Source of the DNA: a virus
Taxonomy: Duplodnaviria > Heunggongvirae > Uroviricota > Caudoviricetes
DNA length: 64,000 nt
IMG/VR virus record: IMGVR_UViG_2595698869_000001
Coordinates: 107,214 to 171,213 of that record
Reading direction: 5' to 3' (one strand)
Below the pieces are notes generated by a model. That model ran no database searches. It was not told where the DNA came from and saw only the letters and a program-made list of their open reading frames with translations. The first letter of the stretch is position 1, and each line of letters opens with the position of its first letter. This document shows positions 4,417 to 31,222 of the stretch, piece by piece. A program made the position numbers and the translations under genes.

Positions 4417-6540
4417 TTAGCTGAACGCCAGGGTGAGCGGGATGGCCTTGATCAGGCCCGGCAGGGCCTTGATGCAGGCGGTGATCTGCGCCTCGGTCGA
4501 GGCGTGGTTCATCATGTCCAGGTATTTCCGGACCGGGTGGTTGTAGTGCTTGTAGACCTTCTGGTGGCCCTCTTCGATGATCTGGATCGTCTTGCTCTTG
4601 GGCGGGGCCTTGTAGGAGCCGTTCTCCTCATAGAGCGACTTCAGGTAGGAGCGCTCGCGCTCGGTCCATTCGGCGATGTTCGCCGCCAGGAACGGCTTGA
4701 GCGCCACGAAGAAGGCCGCCAGCGGCGAGGAGGTCATGCGGCCCAGGGCGTCGTATTCCGCCGGGCAGTGCTTGACCGCGCGGGTGAAGAACCCGAAGGC
4801 CGTCGACGAGGAGGAGAACTTCCCCAGCAGGTTGACGCACTCGTCGAGCGCGATCTTGTGCTTGGCTTGCAGGGCCGCGTCCACGGCCGCGCGCAGCGAC
4901 GGGATGTTGGCCTCCTCGACGTGCTTCTGGGCGGTCGGCGAGGCGATGTAGATGTGCTTGATCCCGAACTTGTTGGCCACCACGAAGGTGTCCTCGGGCT
5001 TCTTGCGGTACTGGTCCGACGAGACCCAGGCCACGCCGCCATCGAGATTGGTCTCGACCTCGACCACCGCCCGCTGCTCGCCCGCCCGCTTGGCCAGGGC
5101 CAGACCCCGGATCGGCGGGGTGTAGACCGCCTGCGGCTTCTTGCCCTCGACCCGGCGCGGCACCACGCCGCGCAGGTCGTCGATGTCGACCTCGACGAAC
5201 TTGGCCTTCGGCAGGGCGCATTTCCAGAACTTGGCGGGCTTGTCGAACGCCAGCAGGAAGTCGCCGGACTTCACCTTCAGCTTCTCCTCCAGGTAGAGGC
5301 GGAAGAGCCGGGCCAGACGGCGGGTCTCGCTCTGGCTGAACTCGCTCTGCGTCGAGGCGTCGCGCGAGGGGTCCATCAGGTCGGAGACGTCGCGGATCAC
5401 GTAGAAGGTTCGCTCGGCGTCATTGTCGAGAGACAGGGTCTTCTCGATGCGGTAGCCCCAGCGCTCGCGGTACTGGTCGAACGTGGCCTTGTAGATGCAC
5501 GACACGCCCGAGAAGGAGATGCTGGAGGTGGTCAGACCCGTCGCCGGATGGGTCACCGACTTGTTGAGGAACTGCGGCTTGAGCTTGTTGTAGGTCTTGA
5601 AGAACTCGACCACCGGCTCGATGTCCTTGACCTTGTCCCAGATCACCATCTCGACCTCGGTGGTGATCTCGCCGATCTTCTTGATCAGGGCCTCGACCGC
5701 GTCGGGCTTGTACTGAATCTCTTCCCGCGACGGGATCGGCTCCACCGTGCCGATCGGCACCGTGATCAGCCATTTGCGGCCCATGTCATGCGGCAGCGTC
5801 AGCCCGCCCTTGTTGGCCAGCGGATAGATCACGCAGCCCTGGCGCACGTTCCAGACCGAGGGCAGGGCCGAATTCTCGTAGGCCGCCCAGGTGCCGTCGG
5901 CGGCCTCGAACTGCGGGGTCCCCAGGCCCTGGCCCAGGTCGATGTTGGTGTCGAACATCGGCGAGTAGCCGAGCGCGACGTTGCGGATTGCCTTCTCGAA
6001 GGCGGGGAAGTCCTTGGCCGCCACGCCGACCGTGACGCGCACCCCGACCGGCTCGGCGCACTCCTCGGTGCCCTGGAGCATGATCCGGGGCCGGCCGCCC
6101 TCGCCGATCGCGGCGGTATAGTGACGCACCACGTCGCCGTCATAGCAGGACACCGAGAACTGGCTGGTGTAGGCGAACGGGCTCTTGGAGCCCAGGCCGA
6201 AGGCGCCGACCAGATCGTCGGTCTGGTCCTTGTCCGACTCGAACAGCGTCGAGTAGAGGAACATCACCTTCTCGTGGCTCATGCCGACGCCATAGTCGCG
6301 GACGTAGAATTCCGGGCGCAGTTCGTTCGGAGCGTGGACGAAGAAGGTGCCCTTGTAGCCCGAAACCAATTGGGAGTCGTAGGCGTTGGTGGTGACTTCG
6401 CGCACCATCGAGCCGATCTTGTCCGAATAGAGACCGTCGATCAGCATCCGGAAGGCCTTGCCGGAGGCCTTGATCGTGAACTCCTGCTCCTCCTCGACCC
6501 CGATGGTTTCAAGGATGACGGGCTCGGCTCCAAGACGCAT
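4417..6540 (-). CDS. rIIA: rIIA-like protein with N-terminal HATPase_c (GHKL) domain
   Basis: N box VREVTTNAYDS, G1 box DYGVGMSHE, G2 box GAFGLGSKS; immediately upstream of rIIB; start ATG at 6540 with GGAG SD downstream of cassette promoter. Confidence 0.8.
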   Translation of the reverse strand: MRLGAEPVILETIGVEEEQEFTIKASGKAFRMLIDGLYSDKIGSMVREVTTNAYDSQLVSGYKGTFFVHAPNELRPEFYVRDYGVGMSHEKVMFLYSTLFESDKDQTDDLVGAFGLGSKSPFAYTSQFSVSCYDGDVVRHYTAAIGEGGRPRIMLQGTEECAEPVGVRVTVGVAAKDFPAFEKAIRNVALGYSPMFDTNIDLGQGLGTPQFEAADGTWAAYENSALPSVWNVRQGCVIYPLANKGGLTLPHDMGRKWLITVPIGTVEPIPSREEIQYKPDAVEALIKKIGEITTEVEMVIWDKVKDIEPVVEFFKTYNKLKPQFLNKSVTHPATGLTTSSISFSGVSCIYKATFDQYRERWGYRIEKTLSLDNDAERTFYVIRDVSDLMDPSRDASTQSEFSQSETRRLARLFRLYLEEKLKVKSGDFLLAFDKPAKFWKCALPKAKFVEVDIDDLRGVVPRRVEGKKPQAVYTPPIRGLALAKRAGEQRAVVEVETNLDGGVAWVSSDQYRKKPEDTFVVANKFGIKHIYIASPTAQKHVEEANIPSLRAAVDAALQAKHKIALDECVNLLGKFSSSSTAFGFFTRAVKHCPAEYDALGRMTSSPLAAFFVALKPFLAANIAEWTERERSYLKSLYEENGSYKAPPKSKTIQIIEEGHQKVYKHYNHPVRKYLDMMNHASTEAQITACIKALPGLIKAIPLTLAFS

Positions 6541-14347: not shown

Positions 14348-14818
14348 ATGTCCCTGATCGAGAAGCTCAACAACGACGCCCTGGCCGCCCGCAAGGCGGC
14401 GATGCGCAAGGAAGCCGGCGGCGAGCACGCCGTTCTCCTGGCGACGGTCGCGGCGGACGCCGCCATGATCGCCAAGAACGACCGCCAGAACCCCGGCCGC
14501 GACGTCACGGACGAGGACGTCGTCGCCACGCTGAAGAAGCACATCGGCGGCATCGACACCACCCTGGCGGAACTGACCAAGCGCGGCCGGTCCGAGGAGG
14601 AGCAGTCGCGCTTCATCGTCGAGCGCCGGCGCCTGGAGGCCTATCTGCCCCAGACCCTGTCGGGCGGCGATCTGACCGACGCGATCCACGCCACGGCCGC
14701 CAAGCTCGGCGTCGACCTGCACGTCAAGAGCACCAAGGCGATCGTCGCCGATCTGCAAGAGCAGTTCCCTGGCCAGATTGATTCTTCGGAAGTCGCGCGC
14801 TATCTTAAGAACGTCTGA
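14348..14818 (+). CDS. GatB/YqeY domain protein
   Basis: MSLIEKLNNDALAARKAAMRKE...KRGRSEEEQSRFIVERRRLEAYLPQTLSGGDL resembles YqeY family. Confidence 0.6.
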   Translation: MSLIEKLNNDALAARKAAMRKEAGGEHAVLLATVAADAAMIAKNDRQNPGRDVTDEDVVATLKKHIGGIDTTLAELTKRGRSEEEQSRFIVERRRLEAYLPQTLSGGDLTDAIHATAAKLGVDLHVKSTKAIVADLQEQFPGQIDSSEVARYLKNV

Positions 14819-14896: not shown

Positions 14897-15967
14897 CTAC
14901 GCCGCTTCCGTCTCGGGACCATCCTCGATCCAGGCCGCATAGAGGTCCTCCAGGACCTTGACGCGGGCCGGGTCCATGTCGGACGGATCGCGGATGCCTT
15001 CGAAGACCCCATGGCGCGGCAGGTCATAGTCGCCGGCCAGGGCGTAGCTCATCTTGATGAACTTCCCCAGCGGCGGGTTGTCATAGAACTCCGCCTTCTG
15101 CTTGGCGTTGAGCCCCGAGGCGACCCTGGCGACCTTGCCCGGCCATTCGGGGAACAGGACCAGGAGCCCGCCGGCGATCCCCTTGGCGACCTTGCCGGCC
15201 TTGTGGGTCGAGCGCTTGGTGTAGCCGCGCTCGTCGAGCGTGGCCTCGTTGGTGTTGGCCTTCTCCTCGTAGCGTCCGATGCAGACACCCTCCAGGTCGG
15301 CCTTGTCCTTGGCCTTGACGTTGAACCCCTCCAGGACGGTCGAGCGGCCGGGCTTGTAGGGCGCGTCCAGCGAGCAGAAGATCAGACCCTCGTCGTCGTT
15401 TTCGAGGGCCTCGTAGAACATCGCCACTGCCTCCTGGGCGTTCTTGAGCAGGCGCTGCTCCAGGATGACCACCCAGGACGGCAGCGACAACTCCAGGGCC
15501 TTCAGGGCGTCCAGACGCTCGGTCTTGCCGCCCGGCGCCAGGAAGTGCTCGAAGACATAGTAGCGGATGTCCGGCTCGCCTTCCTGGGTCATGACCGCCG
15601 AGGTCGACCCCCGGAAGTTCAGCTTGCCGTCGGTCAGGATGCCGATCTCGCCGTCCAGGCCGTGGGGCAGGGTCGACAGCAGCCGCCGCACGTGGTGATT
15701 GGGGATGTACTTCAGCGACCGGGTGATCCCGTGGCCGATCTCGTCGGCCTCCAGGGTGATCCAGCCGGCCTCGGTGTGGACGAGGGAGGTCTCGATCTTG
15801 TCGGGGTGGACGGGCGACACGCTGGCCCGCACCCCGTCCTTCTTGAACGAGGCGTAGCAGGGGAACTGGATGCGGGCCTCGAACTCCTCGGGACGCACCG
15901 AGTCGGTGTCGGCCAGGGCGATCCGGAACCGCTTGTAGGGCTTGAAAGGCTTGGGTTTCTTGGTCAT
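14897..15967 (-). CDS. ATP-dependent DNA ligase (minimal, phage-type)
   Basis: Motif I KKDGVR, III LDGEIGIL, IV EGLIFCSLD, V EGFNVKAKDK; GGAAG SD. Confidence 0.75.
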   Translation of the reverse strand: MTKKPKPFKPYKRFRIALADTDSVRPEEFEARIQFPCYASFKKDGVRASVSPVHPDKIETSLVHTEAGWITLEADEIGHGITRSLKYIPNHHVRRLLSTLPHGLDGEIGILTDGKLNFRGSTSAVMTQEGEPDIRYYVFEHFLAPGGKTERLDALKALELSLPSWVVILEQRLLKNAQEAVAMFYEALENDDEGLIFCSLDAPYKPGRSTVLEGFNVKAKDKADLEGVCIGRYEEKANTNEATLDERGYTKRSTHKAGKVAKGIAGGLLVLFPEWPGKVARVASGLNAKQKAEFYDNPPLGKFIKMSYALAGDYDLPRHGVFEGIRDPSDMDPARVKVLEDLYAAWIEDGPETEAA

Positions 15968-16416
15968 CTCAACTTCCCCTCGATCAGTTTGAGGCCGGGC
16001 TGGTCCCGGTTCATTTGGTAGACGATGTAGCGATCGCCGCTGAACTCGACGCTGTAGACCGTCATGCCGGCGTCGAGGCACTGCATCCACATGTGCCGCG
16101 TCCCCGGCCCGCCGGGGAAGGCCACGCAGACGTTGGCCCCGCTCTCCACGCGCATCCGGGTGTTGCGGTTCTTGGGCGCGTCGTCGCCCTCGCCATCCAG
16201 GAGCGGATCGACCTTGTAGACCTCGGTGGCGAAGCCCCACTTCTCGGCCCAGGCGCGGCAGAGCCGGTCGTAGCCCTCGGCGTCGCCGTCGACCCAGACC
16301 ATGTCGCGCGGCCAGCGAAGCATCGAGACCAGGGCCGACAGGACCAGACGCGGGGCCTGCTCGACGACCCCGACCCGGCCGCCGCAGACCACCGCCTTGA
16401 ACGGATCAGGCTTCAT
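15964..16416 (-). CDS. SLOG-family (DUF2493/YspA-like) protein
   Basis: VVCGGRVG...WVDGDAEGYDRLCRAWAEKWG...VCVAFPGGPGTRHM; ATGA overlap with ligase. Confidence 0.55.
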   Translation of the reverse strand: MKPDPFKAVVCGGRVGVVEQAPRLVLSALVSMLRWPRDMVWVDGDAEGYDRLCRAWAEKWGFATEVYKVDPLLDGEGDDAPKNRNTRMRVESGANVCVAFPGGPGTRHMWMQCLDAGMTVYSVEFSGDRYIVYQMNRDQPGLKLIEGKLR

Positions 16417-19305: not shown

Positions 19306-19519
19306 GGTTACGCTCCAGGAGGGCACGCAGCGAGGGGATGTCGCCGTCCGCCATCTGGTAGAGGCGGACGAACTCGTCGTAGTCGTACTCGTTGATGAGG
19401 TCCCGCATCGCCTGCGGGAGCTTGTCGATGGTCTTGAAGAGCCGGCGCCGATAGCGCTGGGCCTCCATGCGCCGGCGGATGGCGGCGTGGCGCGTCTTGG
19501 CCGCCCGAACGCGCCGCAT
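19256..19519 (-). CDS. hypothetical protein (87 aa)
   Basis: TGATG overlap with upstream gene; GC3 falls in last 15 codons where the next gene's frame takes over. Confidence 0.45.
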   Translation of the reverse strand: MRRVRAAKTRHAAIRRRMEAQRYRRRLFKTIDKLPQAMRDLINEYDYDEFVRLYQMADGDIPSLRALLERNRVLKQQALLVDQDPLP

Positions 19520-20028
19520 CAGGCCGCCGGGGCGATCCAGTCCTCGCGGTCGTCGGCGTAGAGCACCGCCGCCAGCTTCCCCGTGCCGATGTCGCACTTG
19601 GCCGCCGCCTCGACCGCCTGGGGCGCGGTGGCCCCCATGTGGAGCGCGCCCAGGGCCGACCACGTGCCCGAGCCGAAGGCGTAGAACGGCGCGCGCATGG
19701 TGTAGGCCGGCGCGCCGCTCTCGAACCGCAGGCAAAGACCATCGGGCAGGATGATGTAGCCGTTGGTCTCCTTGTCCGGCTTCTCGGGGCGCCCCATGTC
19801 GCAATAGGCGTCGCGCCCGCCGCTGGCCAGCCACTCGTCGAAGGCCGGCGAGCGCACCCAGTCGTTGAAGATTTGGACGTAGGCCGATTCACCCGCCGCG
19901 CCGAACAGCAGCGTGCCGCCAGGACCCTTGCGCTTGCCGATCTTCTGGACATTCCCGCAGGGCGTCCAGAGGTCGAGAACCCGAGCGTCAGCGGCCAGCA
20001 CGCCGTCGCGATAGACGATACACGTCAT
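19519..20028 (-). CDS. HslV/proteasome beta-like Ntn peptidase
   Basis: MTCIVYRDGVLAAD (Thr right after Met), QKIGKRKG, FGAAGESAY, YAFGSGTWSALGAL align with HslV catalytic blocks; GAGGAG SD. Confidence 0.55.
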   Translation of the reverse strand: MTCIVYRDGVLAADARVLDLWTPCGNVQKIGKRKGPGGTLLFGAAGESAYVQIFNDWVRSPAFDEWLASGGRDAYCDMGRPEKPDKETNGYIILPDGLCLRFESGAPAYTMRAPFYAFGSGTWSALGALHMGATAPQAVEAAAKCDIGTGKLAAVLYADDREDWIAPAA

Positions 20029-20761: not shown

Positions 20762-21295
20762 CTAGTCCTGCTCGTCGATCTGGCGAGCGCGTTGAGTGTT
20801 ACCGTGGCGATAATCGTTCCAGTGGTCCATCTTGACGAACTTCCCGCCCACCGTGCGTTGGACGAAAATCCCGTCCGGGGAGATCAGCCCGTATTTCTCG
20901 TCCGCCTCGTTGATCATGCGGAAGAACTCCGCCTGCCAGGGGATCGGCATCTCCTGGAGCGACACGCGCGGCAGGCAGAGCCAGGAGGCGTAGGAGAGCC
21001 CGAAGAAGTAGCTCGACGGGGTGTCATGCAGCGGCACGTCGCCGGCGTAGTGCGTCACGTGCCCGGTCTCGGGATTGCGCGCCGAATGGCTCCAGGCGGC
21101 CCAGAGATCGCGGCGGCTGGCCTCGGCGTCGGCCTGACCCCGGATGATCGCCTGGACGTCTGGCGTATAGCCCGAGAAGGCGGTGGTGTCGTTCTCGTCC
21201 AGGCAGTCGGCCAGGGCCGCGCGCAAGGCCGATCGCAGCTTGTCCTCGGTCAAGGTCGCGTCGGCGGCGATCTGGGCGATACGGTCGCGGAAGGT
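20762..21295 (-). CDS. hypothetical protein (177 aa)
   Basis: Real C-terminal part of ORF 20762..21580; TGATG overlap. Confidence 0.5.
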   Translation of the reverse strand, partial: TFRDRIAQIAADATLTEDKLRSALRAALADCLDENDTTAFSGYTPDVQAIIRGQADAEASRRDLWAAWSHSARNPETGHVTHYAGDVPLHDTPSSYFFGLSYASWLCLPRVSLQEMPIPWQAEFFRMINEADEKYGLISPDGIFVQRTVGGKFVKMDHWNDYRHGNTQRARQIDEQD

Positions 21296-21723
21296 CATTG
21301 GCAGACGTCCTTGGCGTCGCGCGCGGTCACGGGCGACATGTAGGTGTCGGGGTCCCAGGCGCCGGGCGTGCTGCCGCCATAGACATAGTCGCCCGGCGCG
21401 GGCGGCGTCATCGACCCGCCGTTGCTGGCGACCTTGCCCGGATTGGCGTAGGCCGAGAGCCACAGGCGCCCGTCGCTGCCGCGCAGGACGAATTGGCCGT
21501 TCTGGCGGCAGACGCGAGCGATGGTCATGCGCCATGCGTAGTTGAGCTTGGCCTTCTTGGCGGCCTCGTCCCGCAACCACTGCTCATGCCCCAGACGCGC
21601 CCAGCGCGCCTTCTTGGCCACGAGGTCCTTGTGCTCCTGCGACCAGAGGGGGTGGTTGTACTCGTCGCACGCCGAGAGGCTGATCCCGGCGACGACGAGC
21701 AGGAGGAGAGCGCCGCGCCGCAT
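21295..21723 (-). CDS. lipoprotein (142 aa)
   Basis: Signal peptide plus lipobox MRRGALLLLVVAGISLSAC; TGATG overlap with nadV. Confidence 0.55.
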   Translation of the reverse strand: MRRGALLLLVVAGISLSACDEYNHPLWSQEHKDLVAKKARWARLGHEQWLRDEAAKKAKLNYAWRMTIARVCRQNGQFVLRGSDGRLWLSAYANPGKVASNGGSMTPPAPGDYVYGGSTPGAWDPDTYMSPVTARDAKDVCQ

Positions 21724-23153
21724 CAGGCGATCTCGTAGCCGGCCGCGACCCGCTCGCGGATTTGGTCCAGGGTCGCCGGCTCCAGCACCTTGCCGGTGTT
21801 GAAGACCTCGTCCAGCAGGTCGTGCTCGACGACGTCGCCCTCGTGGACCGTGATGGTCTCGAAGCGGCCGTCCTCGGTCGTCACCAGGGCCAGCTTGCCC
21901 TTCTTGGAGACCTTGCCCGGATCGGTGATCGGGTCCTTGTAGATTTCGACCCACTCGCCGTTGATCTCCTGGGCCGAGGACTTCATCGCCCACTTGTTGG
22001 TGTCGCGGTCCAGGTCGCCCGTCGCCAGACCGCCGCCGGCGGCCGTGATGATGCTGTCGGGCGCGACGCCGATGTTGCGGGCCAGGATGAACGGGTCCAT
22101 GTGGGTGTTCTCGTTCATGCCGTCGCCCTGGAGGGCCTTGGCGCCCAGGTTCAGCACGTCCAGGCCGTGGCTGTTCTTCTGGGTCCCGAAGCCGGCGGCC
22201 AGGGTCTGGACGACCGGCGGGATGACCTTGAAGAGGTCGCCCGAATCCGGGCGGCAGACCGGGGTCAGGTTCTTGTTGGCGATCAGTTCCTTGCGCTCGG
22301 TCAGCTTGCCGGCGAAGCGGAAGATGTCCCAGGTGTCGCCGACCAGCGAGAAGATCGAGCCGGGAGGCGCCTTGTTCAGGCAGTGGTCGATATAGTCGTC
22401 GTCGTTGTCGCGCCCGAACGAGCACGAGATCGAGTGCTCCGAGGCCAGGACCGAATAGCCCGACATCTCGCTGAAGTAGTTGATATTCGCCGCCCGCACG
22501 CCGGGGACGTTGTCCGAGCCCTGGAAGTGGAAGAGGTGGGCGATGCCGGCCAGGACCGAGTGGTCATAGCCCATGGTCCCGCGCGAGGAGAAGTCGAGGA
22601 AGGCGAACGGCGACATCGGGGTGTCGCTGTTGGCTTCCCAGAAGCTCTTGATCCGCGTGGCGATGCCGTTGACGCGCGCGGCGATCGTCGAGGCCGTCCA
22701 GACGTCGCGCAGGATCATGGTCTCGAAGTAGGAGGTCAGCCAGGGCAGGCGCGGGTCGAGGTTCTCGACCGAGATCAGCGCGTTGCGGATCGGGATCATC
22801 ACGCCCTCGGGCGCGGCCTTGATCCGCAGCGGGAGATAGCCGCCGTACTCGTTCAGGATGATCTCCCAGCCGTCGCGGTTGAACGGCAGGCCGTGGGCCG
22901 GCACGAACGCGGCCATCTCCTCGACGTCGGCGCGGGTGACCGGCTTGCCGAGCTTCTGGAAGAGCAGGCGCTGGAACGCCGCCAGCATCACCTTGGGATA
23001 GCGCCCGCCCCGGCTCTCGATGTAGCTGTAGACGGTGGTGCAGCCGTCGCGATAGAGCACCCAGTGCCCCAGCTTGTAGCTGTCGGTGTCGGCGATCAGG
23101 TTATAGGTCTCGACGGGCGGCGTGCCGTCCCAGTTGGCGAGGTCAAAGGCCAT
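21723..23153 (-). CDS. nadV: Nicotinamide phosphoribosyltransferase (NadV/NAMPT)
   Basis: N-terminal hallmark NLIADTDSYKLGHW; length 476 aa; AAGGGGGA SD. Confidence 0.8.
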   Translation of the reverse strand: MAFDLANWDGTPPVETYNLIADTDSYKLGHWVLYRDGCTTVYSYIESRGGRYPKVMLAAFQRLLFQKLGKPVTRADVEEMAAFVPAHGLPFNRDGWEIILNEYGGYLPLRIKAAPEGVMIPIRNALISVENLDPRLPWLTSYFETMILRDVWTASTIAARVNGIATRIKSFWEANSDTPMSPFAFLDFSSRGTMGYDHSVLAGIAHLFHFQGSDNVPGVRAANINYFSEMSGYSVLASEHSISCSFGRDNDDDYIDHCLNKAPPGSIFSLVGDTWDIFRFAGKLTERKELIANKNLTPVCRPDSGDLFKVIPPVVQTLAAGFGTQKNSHGLDVLNLGAKALQGDGMNENTHMDPFILARNIGVAPDSIITAAGGGLATGDLDRDTNKWAMKSSAQEINGEWVEIYKDPITDPGKVSKKGKLALVTTEDGRFETITVHEGDVVEHDLLDEVFNTGKVLEPATLDQIRERVAAGYEIA

Positions 23154-23167
23154 GATGAGGTCCCCCT

Positions 23168-24409
23168 TTAAGCGTTGAGGCTGAGCATGCGGTCCACGAT
23201 GAAGGCGTGGTCCTCGAAGGTGTCTCCGGGGTCGATCTCCGAGATCGGGTCCCAGTCGGCGGCGGCGGCGTCGTCATGGCCCTGCACGTGCGGCAGACCC
23301 AGGCCCAGAGGCGGGGGCGGCAGGACGAAGTGGTAGGCCGTGGAGATGATGTGGGCGCGCCGCGAGCGGTGCGGGTCGTCGAACACCTGCGGATCGCCAA
23401 TCTGATAGCGGCGCAGCAGGTGCATCGCCTTCAGCACGCAGTCGGGCGCCGGCGGGGCGGCGGACTTGGTCTTCTCGGCCGCCTTGCACGCTTCCAGCCA
23501 CGCGCGGTACTCCGGCAGATGGGCGGGCGGGATGAACAGCGCCGTCTCCTCGATCACCTCGCGCAGGCAGTTGTCCATCAGCGAGCGACCGGCGTTGACG
23601 AAACCGCCCGGCAGGGCCTTCATTCCAAAGCCCTCGGGGCCGCCGCGCCGGATGCGCAGGATGTGACCGGCGCACTCGACGACCGCGTCCACCGCCAGGA
23701 AGGGGCCAGCGCCCCAGCGTTCGCGATAGGCGTCCTCGGCCTTCTTCTGCGACATCAGATAGGCGTATTCCGGGCGGTCCCGGAACCGTTCCAGGAAGTC
23801 GATCGTGCTCGGGTAGAGGAGATCGGTCCAGGCGTAGCCGTTGTCGCTCCACGAGGTGTCGCGGAAGTTGACGGCGCCGGCGAAATAGGCCTTGCGCAGG
23901 GCGGTGGCGTTGACCCCGTTGTCCTCGACCGGGGTGTAGGGCCATTGCGGGAACCACGTCAGATATTCGCTGGTGGCGTCGCGGATGTTGCCGATCAGGG
24001 TGACGCGCGGACGCAGGACCTTGGAGGCGTTCTTGACGTGCTGCTGGACCTGGGCGATCCACTCGTTCTTCCCGTAGGGGCCGGTGTCATTGAGCGCGAT
24101 CACCTCGGTGCGGCTCAGGAGGTCGAGCACGAGGGCGGCGTGATCGTCCACTCGGCTCTCGACGGTCTCGGCCTCGCGGCCGGCGTCGGCCTCTTCCTGG
24201 GCCAGATCGCTGAGCCCGTTCAGGATCATCTCCTGGCGCTCGCGGAAGGTGAAGGGGTTGCGGGTGTCGCGGGCGAGATTGGCCGAACCGACGAACCACA
24301 GGACCTTGCGGGCCTTGCGGCGCGCGGCCTGGAAGAGGCGGAAATGACCCATCCTGGTCACCAACTGCCCCCGCGTGATCAGCACCGCGATGTCGTATTC
24401 GAAGTCCAC
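23168..24409 (-). CDS. natV: Bifunctional NMN adenylyltransferase / Nudix hydrolase (NatV/NadM-Nudix)
   Basis: N-terminal cytidylyltransferase-like fold DIAVLITRGQLVTRMGHF; C-terminal Nudix box GGFVNAGRSLMDNCLREVIEETAL; adjacent to nadV. Confidence 0.7.
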   Translation of the reverse strand: MDFEYDIAVLITRGQLVTRMGHFRLFQAARRKARKVLWFVGSANLARDTRNPFTFRERQEMILNGLSDLAQEEADAGREAETVESRVDDHAALVLDLLSRTEVIALNDTGPYGKNEWIAQVQQHVKNASKVLRPRVTLIGNIRDATSEYLTWFPQWPYTPVEDNGVNATALRKAYFAGAVNFRDTSWSDNGYAWTDLLYPSTIDFLERFRDRPEYAYLMSQKKAEDAYRERWGAGPFLAVDAVVECAGHILRIRRGGPEGFGMKALPGGFVNAGRSLMDNCLREVIEETALFIPPAHLPEYRAWLEACKAAEKTKSAAPPAPDCVLKAMHLLRRYQIGDPQVFDDPHRSRRAHIISTAYHFVLPPPPLGLGLPHVQGHDDAAAADWDPISEIDPGDTFEDHAFIVDRMLSLNA

Positions 24410-24837
24410 TATCGCTTACCCCTCATTCTGAAGCCGGGCCGGATGCGCCGGATCGGCTTGTTCTCGTCCAGGGAGCGACCCCCATAGCCGCTCAACTCGC
24501 TGAAACCGTTCATGCGCACCGCGAACCGGCGCGTCTTGACGGTCAACTGGTCGCGCTCGAAACCGCGCTCGACCAGCGTCAGGTCGATGACGTCGCCGAA
24601 CACCTCCCCGTGGAAGATGCGCCGCCGCGCCCAGGCGATCGCCGCCCCGAGGTGCGGAAATTCCCGGTGCCGCTCGGCGTCCCGGATCGAGACGCCGTCG
24701 GCATAGCTGGCGTCGACCCAGTCCAGTTTGACCTCGCGGCGCGGCGCGGTCACCTTCTTGAACTCGATCGGCGGCGACGGTTGGCCCAGGCCACCCGTCT
24801 CGATGTCAAAAACCGCGTAGGTGATTGTCTCCGTCAT
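24409..24837 (-). CDS. hypothetical protein
   Basis: First gene after cassette promoter at ~24870; weak FDIETGGL motif. Confidence 0.45.
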   Translation of the reverse strand: MTETITYAVFDIETGGLGQPSPPIEFKKVTAPRREVKLDWVDASYADGVSIRDAERHREFPHLGAAIAWARRRIFHGEVFGDVIDLTLVERGFERDQLTVKTRRFAVRMNGFSELSGYGGRSLDENKPIRRIRPGFRMRGKR

Positions 24838-24878
24838 GCCTCGCGACACTACGCTTTGGGTTCTTGTATTGTCAACAC
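24838..24878 (-). promoter_or_regulatory. Cassette promoter (short leader)
   Basis: GTGTTGACAatacaagaacccaaagCGTAGTGtcgcgaggcATG on minus. Confidence 0.45.
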
Positions 24879-24879
24879 A

Positions 24880-25353
24880 TCACTTCAGGAGCTTGAGGGC
24901 GGGGGCGTGATATTTGAACCCCGCCTCGCTGATCGGCCCCACGCCCACGAAGGTGATGGTCGGCTTGCCGAACACCGTGCGGCCCGCGTCGAGGACGAGG
25001 GTCGCGCCGGCATGGTCGCGGAACCGCTCATAGAGGGCTTCCAACTCGGCGTTGGTCCCGGCGTGGAGCGCGATCTTCACGGCCGACTGCGAGTAGCGGT
25101 ATTGCCGCGCGATCCTGGGGAACCGCTCCATGGCGTCCCACCACGCATGGAGGTAGGCGTGGCCGGCCTGAGCCGCGAGCTTGCCCAGGTTGAGGGATTT
25201 CTCGTCCGGCTTGCGGCGGTTCTTGGCCACGGTCATCGCGTCGAGCGCTTCCTGGCTCACGACGGCGTAGAGGCGCAGTTCGGCCTTAGGCTTGCCGGCG
25301 AAGACCGCCATCAGAGAGTCCCAGGCGTTGCGCCAAGCGTCGATCACGTTCAT
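24880..25353 (-). CDS. Peptidyl-tRNA hydrolase, PTH2 family
   Basis: KLAAQAGHAYLHAW and VLDAGRTVFGKPTITFVGVGP match PTH2 signature blocks. Confidence 0.6.
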   Translation of the reverse strand: MNVIDAWRNAWDSLMAVFAGKPKAELRLYAVVSQEALDAMTVAKNRRKPDEKSLNLGKLAAQAGHAYLHAWWDAMERFPRIARQYRYSQSAVKIALHAGTNAELEALYERFRDHAGATLVLDAGRTVFGKPTITFVGVGPISEAGFKYHAPALKLLK

Positions 25354-26817: not shown

Positions 26818-26881
26818 GAAAAGGGCCTCCGGCGTTGTCGTCGAAGGCCCTTCTAGCGAGTCGGTGTCAGGCTGTCAACAC
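26818..26881 (-). promoter_or_regulatory. Cassette promoter + leader
   Basis: GTGTTGACAgcctgacaccgactcgCTAGAAGggccttcGACGACAACGccGGAGGcccttttcATG. Confidence 0.55.
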
Positions 26882-29989: not shown

Positions 29990-31222
29990 CTAGCCCTTCA
30001 CGCAGAGGACTTGCTTGAGGGTGTGGACGATGTCCACGAGGTCCTTCTGGGCCTCCATGACCGCGTCGATGTCCTTGTAGGCCATCGGGATTTCGTCGAT
30101 CACGCCGGCGTCCTTGCGGCACTCCACGCCCTCGGTGGCCTTGATCTGGTCCTCCAGAGTGAAGGTCGCCTTGGCCTGGGTCCGCGACATCGTCCGGCCC
30201 GCGCCGTGCGAGCACGAGCAGAACGAGTCCGCATTGCCCTTGCCGCGCACGATGTAGGACTTGGCCCCCATCGAGCCGGGGATGATCCCGAACTGGTCCT
30301 TCTGCGCCGACACCGCGCCCTTGCGGGTCACGAAGACCCACTCGTCGAAGTGGAATTCCTTCTGGACGTAGTTGTGGTGGCAGTTCACCGCTTCCTTGTC
30401 CGTCTTGAACGGCGGCAGGCCCGACGCCCGCATGGCCTCCAGGACCCGGACCATCATCATCTCGCGGTTGATCCGCGCGAAGTCCTGGCCCCAGGCGACG
30501 GCTTCCACGTAGTCGTGGAACTCCGGCTCGCCTTCGCAGAGCCAAGCAAGGTCCTTGTCCAGCGGCTTGCGCCCGTCACGGCGCAGCATCATCTCCTTGG
30601 CCTTCTCGATGAAGATGCGGCCGATGGTGTTGCCGACGCCGCGCGAGCCCGAGTGGAGCATCACCCAGACGCGCTGATCCTCGTCGAGGCAGACCTCGAT
30701 GAAGTGGTTGCCGCCGCCCAGGGTGCCCAGTTGGACCACGCTGTTGGCGTTCTTCAGCGCCGGGTACTTCTCGCAGAGCTTGTCGAACCGCGCCTCCAGG
30801 CCCGAATCGACCCACTTGCGCAGGATCGAGTTGGGGATGCCGCTGCGCCCGTTCCAGCCGCCCGACGGACCCGGCCCGCCGTGCGGGACGGCGTGCTCGA
30901 TCAGCGAGCGAAGCTTGGACAGGCTGTCGGGGAGGTCCGACGCGGTCAGGCTGGTGCGGACCGCCATCATGCCGCAGCCGATGTCGACGCCGACGGCGGC
31001 CGGGATGATCGCGCCCTTGGTCGGGATCACCGAGCCCACGGTCGAGCCGATGCCCATGTGGACATCCGGCATCAGGGCGACGTGCGAGTGGATGAAGGGC
31101 AAGGCCGCGAGGTTGTGGGCCTGGACCTGAGCCGGTTGCTCGAAGTTCACGCCGCGAACCCAGGCCTTGATCACCCCGCCATTCCAGCCGTTGATCTCTT
31201 CGTAATGGGTCTCGGCGGACAC
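29990..31222 (-). CDS. rtcB: RtcB-family RNA ligase
   Basis: VGVDIGCGM, GGGNHFIE, CHHNYV, CSHGAGR metal/GTP-binding blocks; AAGGAG SD + GTG. Confidence 0.8.
   Translation of the reverse strand: MSAETHYEEINGWNGGVIKAWVRGVNFEQPAQVQAHNLAALPFIHSHVALMPDVHMGIGSTVGSVIPTKGAIIPAAVGVDIGCGMMAVRTSLTASDLPDSLSKLRSLIEHAVPHGGPGPSGGWNGRSGIPNSILRKWVDSGLEARFDKLCEKYPALKNANSVVQLGTLGGGNHFIEVCLDEDQRVWVMLHSGSRGVGNTIGRIFIEKAKEMMLRRDGRKPLDKDLAWLCEGEPEFHDYVEAVAWGQDFARINREMMMVRVLEAMRASGLPPFKTDKEAVNCHHNYVQKEFHFDEWVFVTRKGAVSAQKDQFGIIPGSMGAKSYIVRGKGNADSFCSCSHGAGRTMSRTQAKATFTLEDQIKATEGVECRKDAGVIDEIPMAYKDIDAVMEAQKDLVDIVHTLKQVLCVKG

Follow-up and report, generated by a model that had tools for sequence, protein, structure and literature searches.

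A NARP2-type nicotinamide salvage gene pair predicted in Caulobacter phage CcrKarma, with an atypical first active-site motif in NatV

Do two neighbouring genes of a Caulobacter phage encode a complete route from nicotinamide to nicotinamide adenine dinucleotide (NAD+), and does such a route serve against host defence? The question is raised by a stretch of 64,000 nucleotides from a Caudoviricetes record (IMG/VR IMGVR_UViG_2595698869_000001, positions 107,214 to 171,213; hereafter the window, in which each position equals the record position minus 107213). An initial annotation of the window had recognised an adjacent nadV and natV and proposed that they form an anti-defence module resembling NARP2, the name that Osterman et al. 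(bioRxiv 10.1101/2024.02.11.579819) gave to a Nampt and Nmnat pathway, which they detected in some 1.1% of phage genomes. In that study the Nampt and Nmnat pair of phage KVP40 rebuilt NAD+ and abolished type I Thoeris and DSR2 defence.

The flagged stretch and its flanks (21200-24900) were 100% identical to Caulobacter phage CcrKarma (JX100811 / NC_019410), the genome of which is 222 kb, and 98-99.5% identical to phiCbK, Magneto, Swift and other Shapirovirus phages. The two genes, gp164 and gp165 of CcrKarma, very probably constitute a co-transcribed NARP2-type nicotinamide salvage pair, the activities of the proteins and their anti-defence role in Caulobacter being predictions. This reading is supported by strong homology and, by analogy, by the experiments on a homologous pair that is 28-34% identical. 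Its soft spot is the domain of NatV that would act as nicotinamide mononucleotide (NMN) adenylyltransferase (NMNAT): because the first active-site motif of this domain is atypical, we only infer NAD+ synthesis by Karma NatV. The two genes are the following.

21723-23153, minus strand: nadV (CcrKarma gp164), 476 aa, ATG start; in GenBank a nicotinate or nicotinamide phosphoribosyltransferase
23168-24409, minus strand: natV (CcrKarma gp165), 413 aa, GTG start; 'NUDIX hydrolase domain protein' in the Karma record, 'bifunctional NMN adenylyltransferase/nudix hydrolase' in one phiCbK record

The list of open reading frames (ORFs) and a check of the junctions placed both genes at these coordinates, separated by a spacer of 14 nt that includes a Shine-Dalgarno-like AGGGGGA, and the description of the genes as adjacent, co-directional and nearly abutting was thereby confirmed. 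Both peptides quoted in the initial annotation were present, NLIADTDSYKLGHW as residues 18-31 of NadV and the Nudix-box peptide GGFVNAGRSLMDNCLREVIEETAL as residues 268-291 of NatV. The order natV followed directly by nadV was found in every Dolichocephalovirinae locus, and in every related metagenome contig, that was long enough to show it.

The Pfam search of NadV identified NAMPT_N (PF18127, 76.3 bits) followed by the NAPRTase TIM barrel (PF04095, 84.7 bits). The score against the NCBIfam equivalog NF006629 was 409.4 bits, above the cutoff of 405, and phrog_448 was matched with an E value of 2e-140. The alignments with solved nicotinamide phosphoribosyltransferases (NAMPTs) ran from end to end, with E values of 1.6e-94 for the bacterial structure 7yqo and about 2e-66 for the human enzyme. 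The NF006629 score and the structural matches agree with the earlier identification of gp164 as a nicotinamide phosphoribosyltransferase.

Individual residues of NadV were mapped through the alignment with 4o1c, in which the chain index equals the human NAMPT numbering; the list of key human residues reflects the NAMPT literature. All the 19 catalytic and substrate residues checked were kept. The specificity for nicotinamide lies in human D219, and Y18 and F193 sandwich the ring; these residues, together with R196, correspond to NadV D214, Y26, F188 and R191. Human H247 is the phosphohistidine that becomes autophosphorylated, and further Arg, Asp and Lys residues bind phosphate and ribose. In NadV, E239 and H240 stand for human E246 and H247, and R48 for R40. 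The remaining counterparts are S269, D273, R301 and D303 (human S275, D279, R311 and D313), G343, D344, G373, G374 and R383 (human G353, D354, G383, G384 and R392), and K391, K406 and K414 (human K400, K415 and K423). The segment with the phosphohistidine position is located as follows.

22431-22442, minus strand: SEHS segment of NadV with E239 and H240 (4o1c alignment)

According to the initial annotation, a lack of catalytic residues on alignment would have refuted the proposal, and none of the residues checked in NadV was lacking. In comparison with the solved NAMPTs (bacterial 7YQO, human 2GVG and others), to which NadV aligned end to end with all the checked residues in common, no notable difference was found.

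NatV matched phrog_395 with an E value of 2e-83. Among the solved structures it matched 2qjo with an E value of 1.4e-40 (phmmer, three stretches spanning both domains) and 2QJT/2R5W with 2e-25. The Pfam NUDIX score was 26.3 bits, above the cutoff of 21.1. An AlphaFold (AF2) model built from 98 homologues reached a predicted local distance difference test (pLDDT) score of 95.5 and a predicted template modelling (pTM) score of 0.91. In a Foldseek comparison the model superposed on both domains of 2QJO and of 2R5W (E about 1e-30, target-normalised TM score 0.85-0.89). For NadV and NatV alike, the matches to their families are too strong to be a product of chance. The claim that gp165 is a fused NMN adenylyltransferase-Nudix protein holds on the 2qjo match and the full-length fold match, with the hidden Markov model scores marking it as a divergent member. 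The parts of NatV that matter for its function are listed below.

23735-24409, minus strand: NMNAT (HIGH-superfamily nucleotidyltransferase) domain, residues about 1-225 (2qjo/2qjt alignments, AF2 secondary structure)
24344-24376, minus strand: first NMNAT motif, TRGQLVTRMGH, a variant of GRFQPFHxGH, residues 12-22 (alignments to 2qjo/2qjt and homologues)
23894-23914, minus strand: second NMNAT motif of ISxTxxR type, VNATALR, residues 166-172 (homologue alignment)
23537-23605, minus strand: Nudix box, residues 269-291, GFVNAGRSLMDNCLREVIEETAL (Pfam NUDIX, homologue alignment)

In the alignment of 120 clusters of NatV homologues, T169 of the second NMNAT motif was present in 110 clusters and R172 in all 120. 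The metal-binding core of the Nudix box (consensus Gx5Ex7REUxEExGU) was kept as R283, E284, E287 and E288; the penultimate Gly of the box is Ala in NatV, at a position that varies among the homologues. NatV shares the two-domain fold, at 25-30% identity, with 2QJO (Synechocystis slr0787) and 2R5W/2QJT (Francisella tularensis); the REx2EE core of its Nudix box and its second NMNAT motif also recur in these bacterial NadM-Nudix enzymes. It differs from them in its greater length (about 70 residues more, owing to two inserts), in its first nucleotidyltransferase motif, and in being encoded by a phage next to nadV. The inserts, at about residues 67-105 in the NMNAT domain and 296-335 in the Nudix domain, are lineage-specific and were modelled as helical hairpins. 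Such hairpins in both domains were common to the Caulobacter-phage NatVs, with near-neutral evolution of the inserts as opposed to constrained catalytic cores. A metagenomic protein of 628 aa (P0044) combined NMNAT PF01467 and NAMPT_N PF18127 in one product with a degenerate Nudix box, and may be either natV fused to nadV or a gene call with a frameshift.

Several observations on NatV count against the salvage reading. The first His of HxGH is replaced by R19 in NatV (with T18 one position earlier), and the motif contains one extra residue; this one-residue insertion was confined to Karma and CcrBL10 among the 120 clusters. In the Nudix box, the Glu of Gx5E, present in 102 of the 120 clusters, is replaced by R275. 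The NatV of the KVP40 species, which has been experimentally validated, has a canonical GRFRPFHNGH and is only 28% identical to Karma NatV. The Pfam CTP_transf_like score of 19.8 bits was under the cutoff of 21. Finally, NatV scored far below the cutoffs of all the NCBIfam NadM-Nudix models, which span 354-449 bits (223.3 vs 397, 177 vs 354, 172 vs 409, others lower), and it is therefore a divergent relative rather than a curated equivalog.

These differences could mean that the adenylyltransferase of Karma and CcrBL10 NatV has been lost or changed, leaving mainly a Nudix ADP-ribose pyrophosphatase or a regulator, with a host enzyme making NAD+ from the NMN of NadV. The unique insertion, the lost first His, the further changes in GRFQP (G to T, F to G and P to L), the scores under the curated cutoffs and the two lineage-specific helical inserts all fit this alternative. 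The residues that were retained argue the other way: the variant motif keeps R13, G21 and H22, the second motif keeps T169 and R172, and the fold was predicted with very high confidence. The PDB holds mutants R11A/K, H19A and R136A of the M. thermoautotrophicum NMNAT, and R11, H19 and R136 presumably equal the kept R13, H22 and R172 of Karma.

The variation among the homologues also bears on the first motif. Its first HxGH position was H in 103 of the clusters, Q in 11, T in three, R in one (Karma) and K in one (CcrBL10). The canonical motif was present in the Brevundimonas phages, phiM19, Xanthomonas phage X1 and the KVP40-species genome VH1_2019, and QxGH in Colossus and C1. In two metagenomic relatives the motif reads TKGH and TRGH, forms that agree with the superfamily consensus (H/T)xGH and so suggest that drift of the first position is tolerated.

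Selection was estimated as the ratio of nonsynonymous to synonymous substitution rates (dN/dS, Nei-Gojobori) between the NatVs of Karma and CcrBL10, with the following values.

NMNAT core: dN/dS 0.17
N-terminal 66 residues of NatV, which hold the variant motif: dN/dS 0.24
Whole NMNAT domain: dN/dS 0.29
Nudix domain: dN/dS 0.30
NMNAT insert: dN/dS 0.96
Nudix insert: dN/dS 0.57

No part of NatV is more constrained than the NMNAT core (0.17 vs 0.30 for the Nudix domain), and because dN/dS is low in the NMNAT domain, the adenylyltransferase domain is not decaying. Pseudogenisation of the domain was ruled out by the values of 0.17-0.29, which indicate purifying selection. As regards the catalytic residues of NatV, R13, G21, H22, T169, R172, R283, E284, E287 and E288 were kept, and the first His and the Glu of Gx5E were replaced. 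We consider a lost or changed adenylyltransferase improbable; the adenylyltransferase of NatV is most likely active, with a drifted first motif position.

Under the salvage reading, NadV would convert nicotinamide and phosphoribosyl pyrophosphate (PRPP) into NMN, a reaction probably boosted by ATP-dependent phosphorylation of His240 as in other NAMPTs. The N-terminal domain of NatV would then join NMN and ATP into NAD+. The C-terminal Nudix domain would most likely hydrolyse ADP-ribose, possibly also NAD(H), to AMP and ribose-5-phosphate; hydrolysis of ADP-ribose would clear the other NADase product and feed carbon back towards PRPP. NAD+ would thereby be expected to remain available during infection, including under cleavage by host TIR, SIR2 or SEFIR proteins.

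Is the module restricted to these two genes? The gene that is consistently coupled to the pair, judging from the gene order of the related loci, is the orphan gp166 directly upstream of natV, which the initial annotation did not mention.

24409-24849 (24409-24837 in GenBank, with the start at 24837), minus strand: gp166, 146 aa, hypothetical in GenBank; its TAG stop overlaps the GTG start of natV (TAGTG)

The tblastn matches of gp166 were only to 38 Caulobacter and Brevundimonas phage records, and among 1.84 billion representatives searched exhaustively with HMMER there were 31 relatives, all of them small proteins. The family core is W..D..ER.R.F.H.GAAIAWARR.IFHG.VFGD, with W73 and R75 invariant. 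In CcrBL10, Colossus, Bajun, Bambus and two metagenome contigs, the family profile matched the ORF that immediately precedes natV. In two more contigs (L017 and L018, with the same protein) a member of the family was also directly upstream of natV, with an overlap of 1-4 nt. A member was thus directly upstream of natV at 9/9 places where one was found (Karma, BL10, Colossus, Bajun, Bambus and the four metagenome contigs). The family was not detected upstream of natV in C1, metagenome contig L015, or the KVP40-type, phiM19 and X1 loci. The AF2 model of gp166, although confident (pLDDT 85.5), gave no significant fold match, and no family match was found for the protein.

The linkage of gp166 and natV is the only non-trivial new observation made here. 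It would agree with a NARP2 of Dolichocephalovirinae that is a three-gene cassette, in which gp166 partners NatV and NadV, for example by regulating the enzymes or by binding NAD-derived molecules; separately, the NatV of Karma and BL10 might use an undescribed T-(R/K)-x-G-H active-site loop. We put this forward as an unlikely extension of the two-gene reading.

On the other side of the pair, the initial annotation had noted a lipoprotein gene coupled to the end of nadV.

21295-21723, minus strand: gp163, 142 aa, putative lipoprotein in GenBank, MRRGALLLLVVAGISLSAC..., lipobox LSAC (phrog_12433, junction sequence)

The overlap itself was confirmed: the nadV TGA stop and the ATG of gp163 have one A in common (TGATG), and the ATG is preceded by only a weak Shine-Dalgarno-like sequence. 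A conserved partnership was not: a comparison of six Dolichocephalovirinae phages showed the gene only in the Shapirovirus and Poindextervirus members (Karma and CcrBL10), and overlaps of this type are usual in the gene block. These same observations bear on whether gp163 has a function within the salvage module, for instance in the uptake of nicotinamide. The one-base overlap of stop and start codons and the weak Shine-Dalgarno-like sequence would be compatible with such a role. Against it, the homologues are limited to Karma-like phages and CcrBL10, the latter with 69% identity, an 80-aa gene between the homologue and nadV, and no lipobox Cys. The position downstream of nadV is moreover taken by an unrelated conserved gene in Colossus, Bajun and Bambus and by other small genes in C1, and stop codons overlap the next start throughout the block. 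A part for gp163 in salvage is accordingly very hard to credit, and gp163 is by its distribution a lineage-specific neighbour and not a member of the module.

The CcrBL10 homologue (L007, 6413-6874) has a hydrophobic N-terminal segment and no Cys at the lipobox position, and the gp163 family may consist of membrane-anchored periplasmic proteins that are not obligate lipoproteins. A 376-aa GTG ORF at 21295-22425 (minus strand), which crosses the 3' half of nadV in a different frame, was rejected as an artefact of high GC content; translation of the true gene begins with the ATG at 21723. The protein encoded downstream of nadV in Colossus, Bajun and Bambus is conserved and small (about 118-146 aa), ends in ...AAG(E/K/P)DPF, and is located as follows.

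Colossus (L003), 6092-6532: AAG(E/K/P)DPF protein
Bajun (L005), 6057-6434: AAG(E/K/P)DPF protein
Bambus (L006), 6065-6421: AAG(E/K/P)DPF protein

The pair is situated within a minus-strand block that runs from gp170 to gp153 and ends at 14897, with a predicted terminator as its upstream limit. In this block overlapping or abutting genes are the majority, and the stop and start overlaps include gp166/natV and gp163/gp162. A simple promoter and terminator scan gave 0 sigma-70-like promoters and did not recover the GenBank terminators, and because of this the operon limits were taken from the GenBank annotation. Neighbours of the pair in the block include the following.

26823-26850, minus strand: predicted rho-independent terminator (GenBank annotation of JX100811 / NC_019410)
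24880-25353, minus strand: gp167, peptidyl-tRNA hydrolase of PTH2 type
19519-20028, minus strand: gp160, homologue of HslV/20S-proteasome-like peptidases (phrog_1040, E 8e-42)
15964-16416, minus strand: gp154, weak YAcAr/SLOG-like protein (Pfam YAcAr near threshold, 27.2 bits vs cutoff 28.2)
14897-15967, minus strand: gp153, DNA ligase of ATP type, resembling ATP-dependent ligases and not the NAD+-dependent LigA

The same block also includes gp156, a DUF1643 protein. Around the NAD+ pair there are genes of translation or RNA-repair type: PTH2 (24880-25353, minus strand), a YqeY-like gene (14348-14818, plus strand) and an RtcB ligase (29990-31222, minus strand). In Sinorhizobium phage phiM19 (L011), PTH2, YqeY-like and macro-domain genes lie at most 3 kb from natV, which suggests that the PTH2/YqeY surroundings of NatV in Karma and phiM19 are a recurrent neighbourhood. 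No partner ATPase of gp160 was noticed nearby. An unrelated phage contig from a metagenome (L015, 8016-9113) also has a YAcAr and ligase pair, at a distance of a few kb from its natV-nadV. SLOG domains have been tied to the sensing of NAD- and ADPR-derived nucleotides.

This setting, and the physiology of the KVP40 pathway, raise the question of what the pair is selected for. The KVP40 pathway gives excess NAD+ in cells without any defence system (Osterman et al.), and for this reason defence evasion need not be the sole selected function, which qualifies the anti-defence part of our reading. The pair could instead be a general metabolic booster that raises the NAD+ supply of a large phage whatever the immunity of the host, with defence evasion at most as a side benefit. 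Besides the excess NAD+ of defence-free cells, the booster would suit the position of the pair within housekeeping-type genes (PTH2, YqeY, RtcB, HD phosphohydrolase, HslV-like peptidase and DNA ligase) and the similar NatV, PTH2 and YqeY neighbourhood of phiM19. On the other hand, no NAD+-consuming enzyme was recognised in the window, where the gp153 ligase resembles ATP-dependent ligases, and experiments have demonstrated that the homologous pathway counteracts defence. The booster is in our judgement somewhat unlikely as the principal explanation, and the two readings are compatible. The more specific idea that the pair feeds an NAD+-dependent ligase of the same block was rejected on the resemblance of gp153 to ATP-dependent ligases.

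The salvage pair of CcrKarma is an already annotated and already catalogued instance of NARP2 and not a discovery, because the phiCbK records in GenBank already name both enzymes and the NARP2 table lists the Karma Nampt. Supplementary file 2 of Osterman et al. contains the entry 'JX100811_00189, Caulobacter virus Karma, Nmnat-associated' with the NadV sequence of the window, and phiCbK likewise. Iyer et al. 2022 (PMC9503650, section 3.6) had read phage NadV and NadM as reconstituting NAD+ against NADase effectors, and NARP1 and NARP2 are described along the same lines in a 2026 paper on NARP3. The initial view of the pair as a NARP2-like anti-defence module accordingly repeats a classification in print. 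The KVP40 NadV and NatV (Nmnat-Nudix) pair goes back to Lee et al. 2017, as represented in Osterman et al. and Iyer et al. The searched literature reported no experiments on Caulobacter phage nadV or natV, and the phiCbK genome paper does not discuss the two genes. The value of the present analysis is thus confirmatory: phiCbK-like phages, a standard tool of Caulobacter research, carry an apparently intact NAD+ salvage pair. The motif variant in a constrained domain and the linked orphan gp166 could refine, incrementally, the view of how the module varies between lineages.

Such variation was visible also in Xanthomonas phage X1, in which an NAD(+) synthase gene (NadE-like; L012, 253-1083) is located about 2 kb upstream of the natV-nadV pair and a gene of 459 nt lies between natV and nadV; the composition of the module therefore varies between lineages. 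In comparison with the KVP40 type, Karma is about 34% identical in NadV (measured with the KVP40-like phage Va3 as a stand-in) and 28% in NatV. Its natV and nadV are 14 nt apart, whereas in the KVP40-species genome examined no NAMPT gene was found within 3 kb of natV. Unlike that of KVP40, Karma NatV has a non-canonical HxGH, an Arg for the Glu of Gx5E and two helical inserts, and Karma has a coupled upstream gp166 in contrast to the KVP40-type locus.

NARP1 (Adps and Namat, the latter a NadV homologue) and NARP3 (PnuC and NadR) reach the same outcome as the Karma pair, a phage-driven rebuilding of NAD+. NARP1 differs in starting at ADP-ribose via ADP-ribose pyrophosphate (ADPR-PP) and in needing the Prs-like Adps, and NARP3 differs in importing nicotinamide riboside. 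According to Osterman et al., no phage carries NARP1 and NARP2 together; their supplement classes the Karma Nampt gene as Nmnat-associated and not Adps-associated, and no Prs- or Adps-like, PnuC or NadR gene was annotated among the 125 annotated features of the window. Homologues of both the KVP40-type Nampt and Nmnat are present and adjacent in the window, and with KVP40 NARP2 the Karma pair shares the two enzyme families, the predicted reactions, the NMNAT-Nudix fusion and the 'Nmnat-associated' class.

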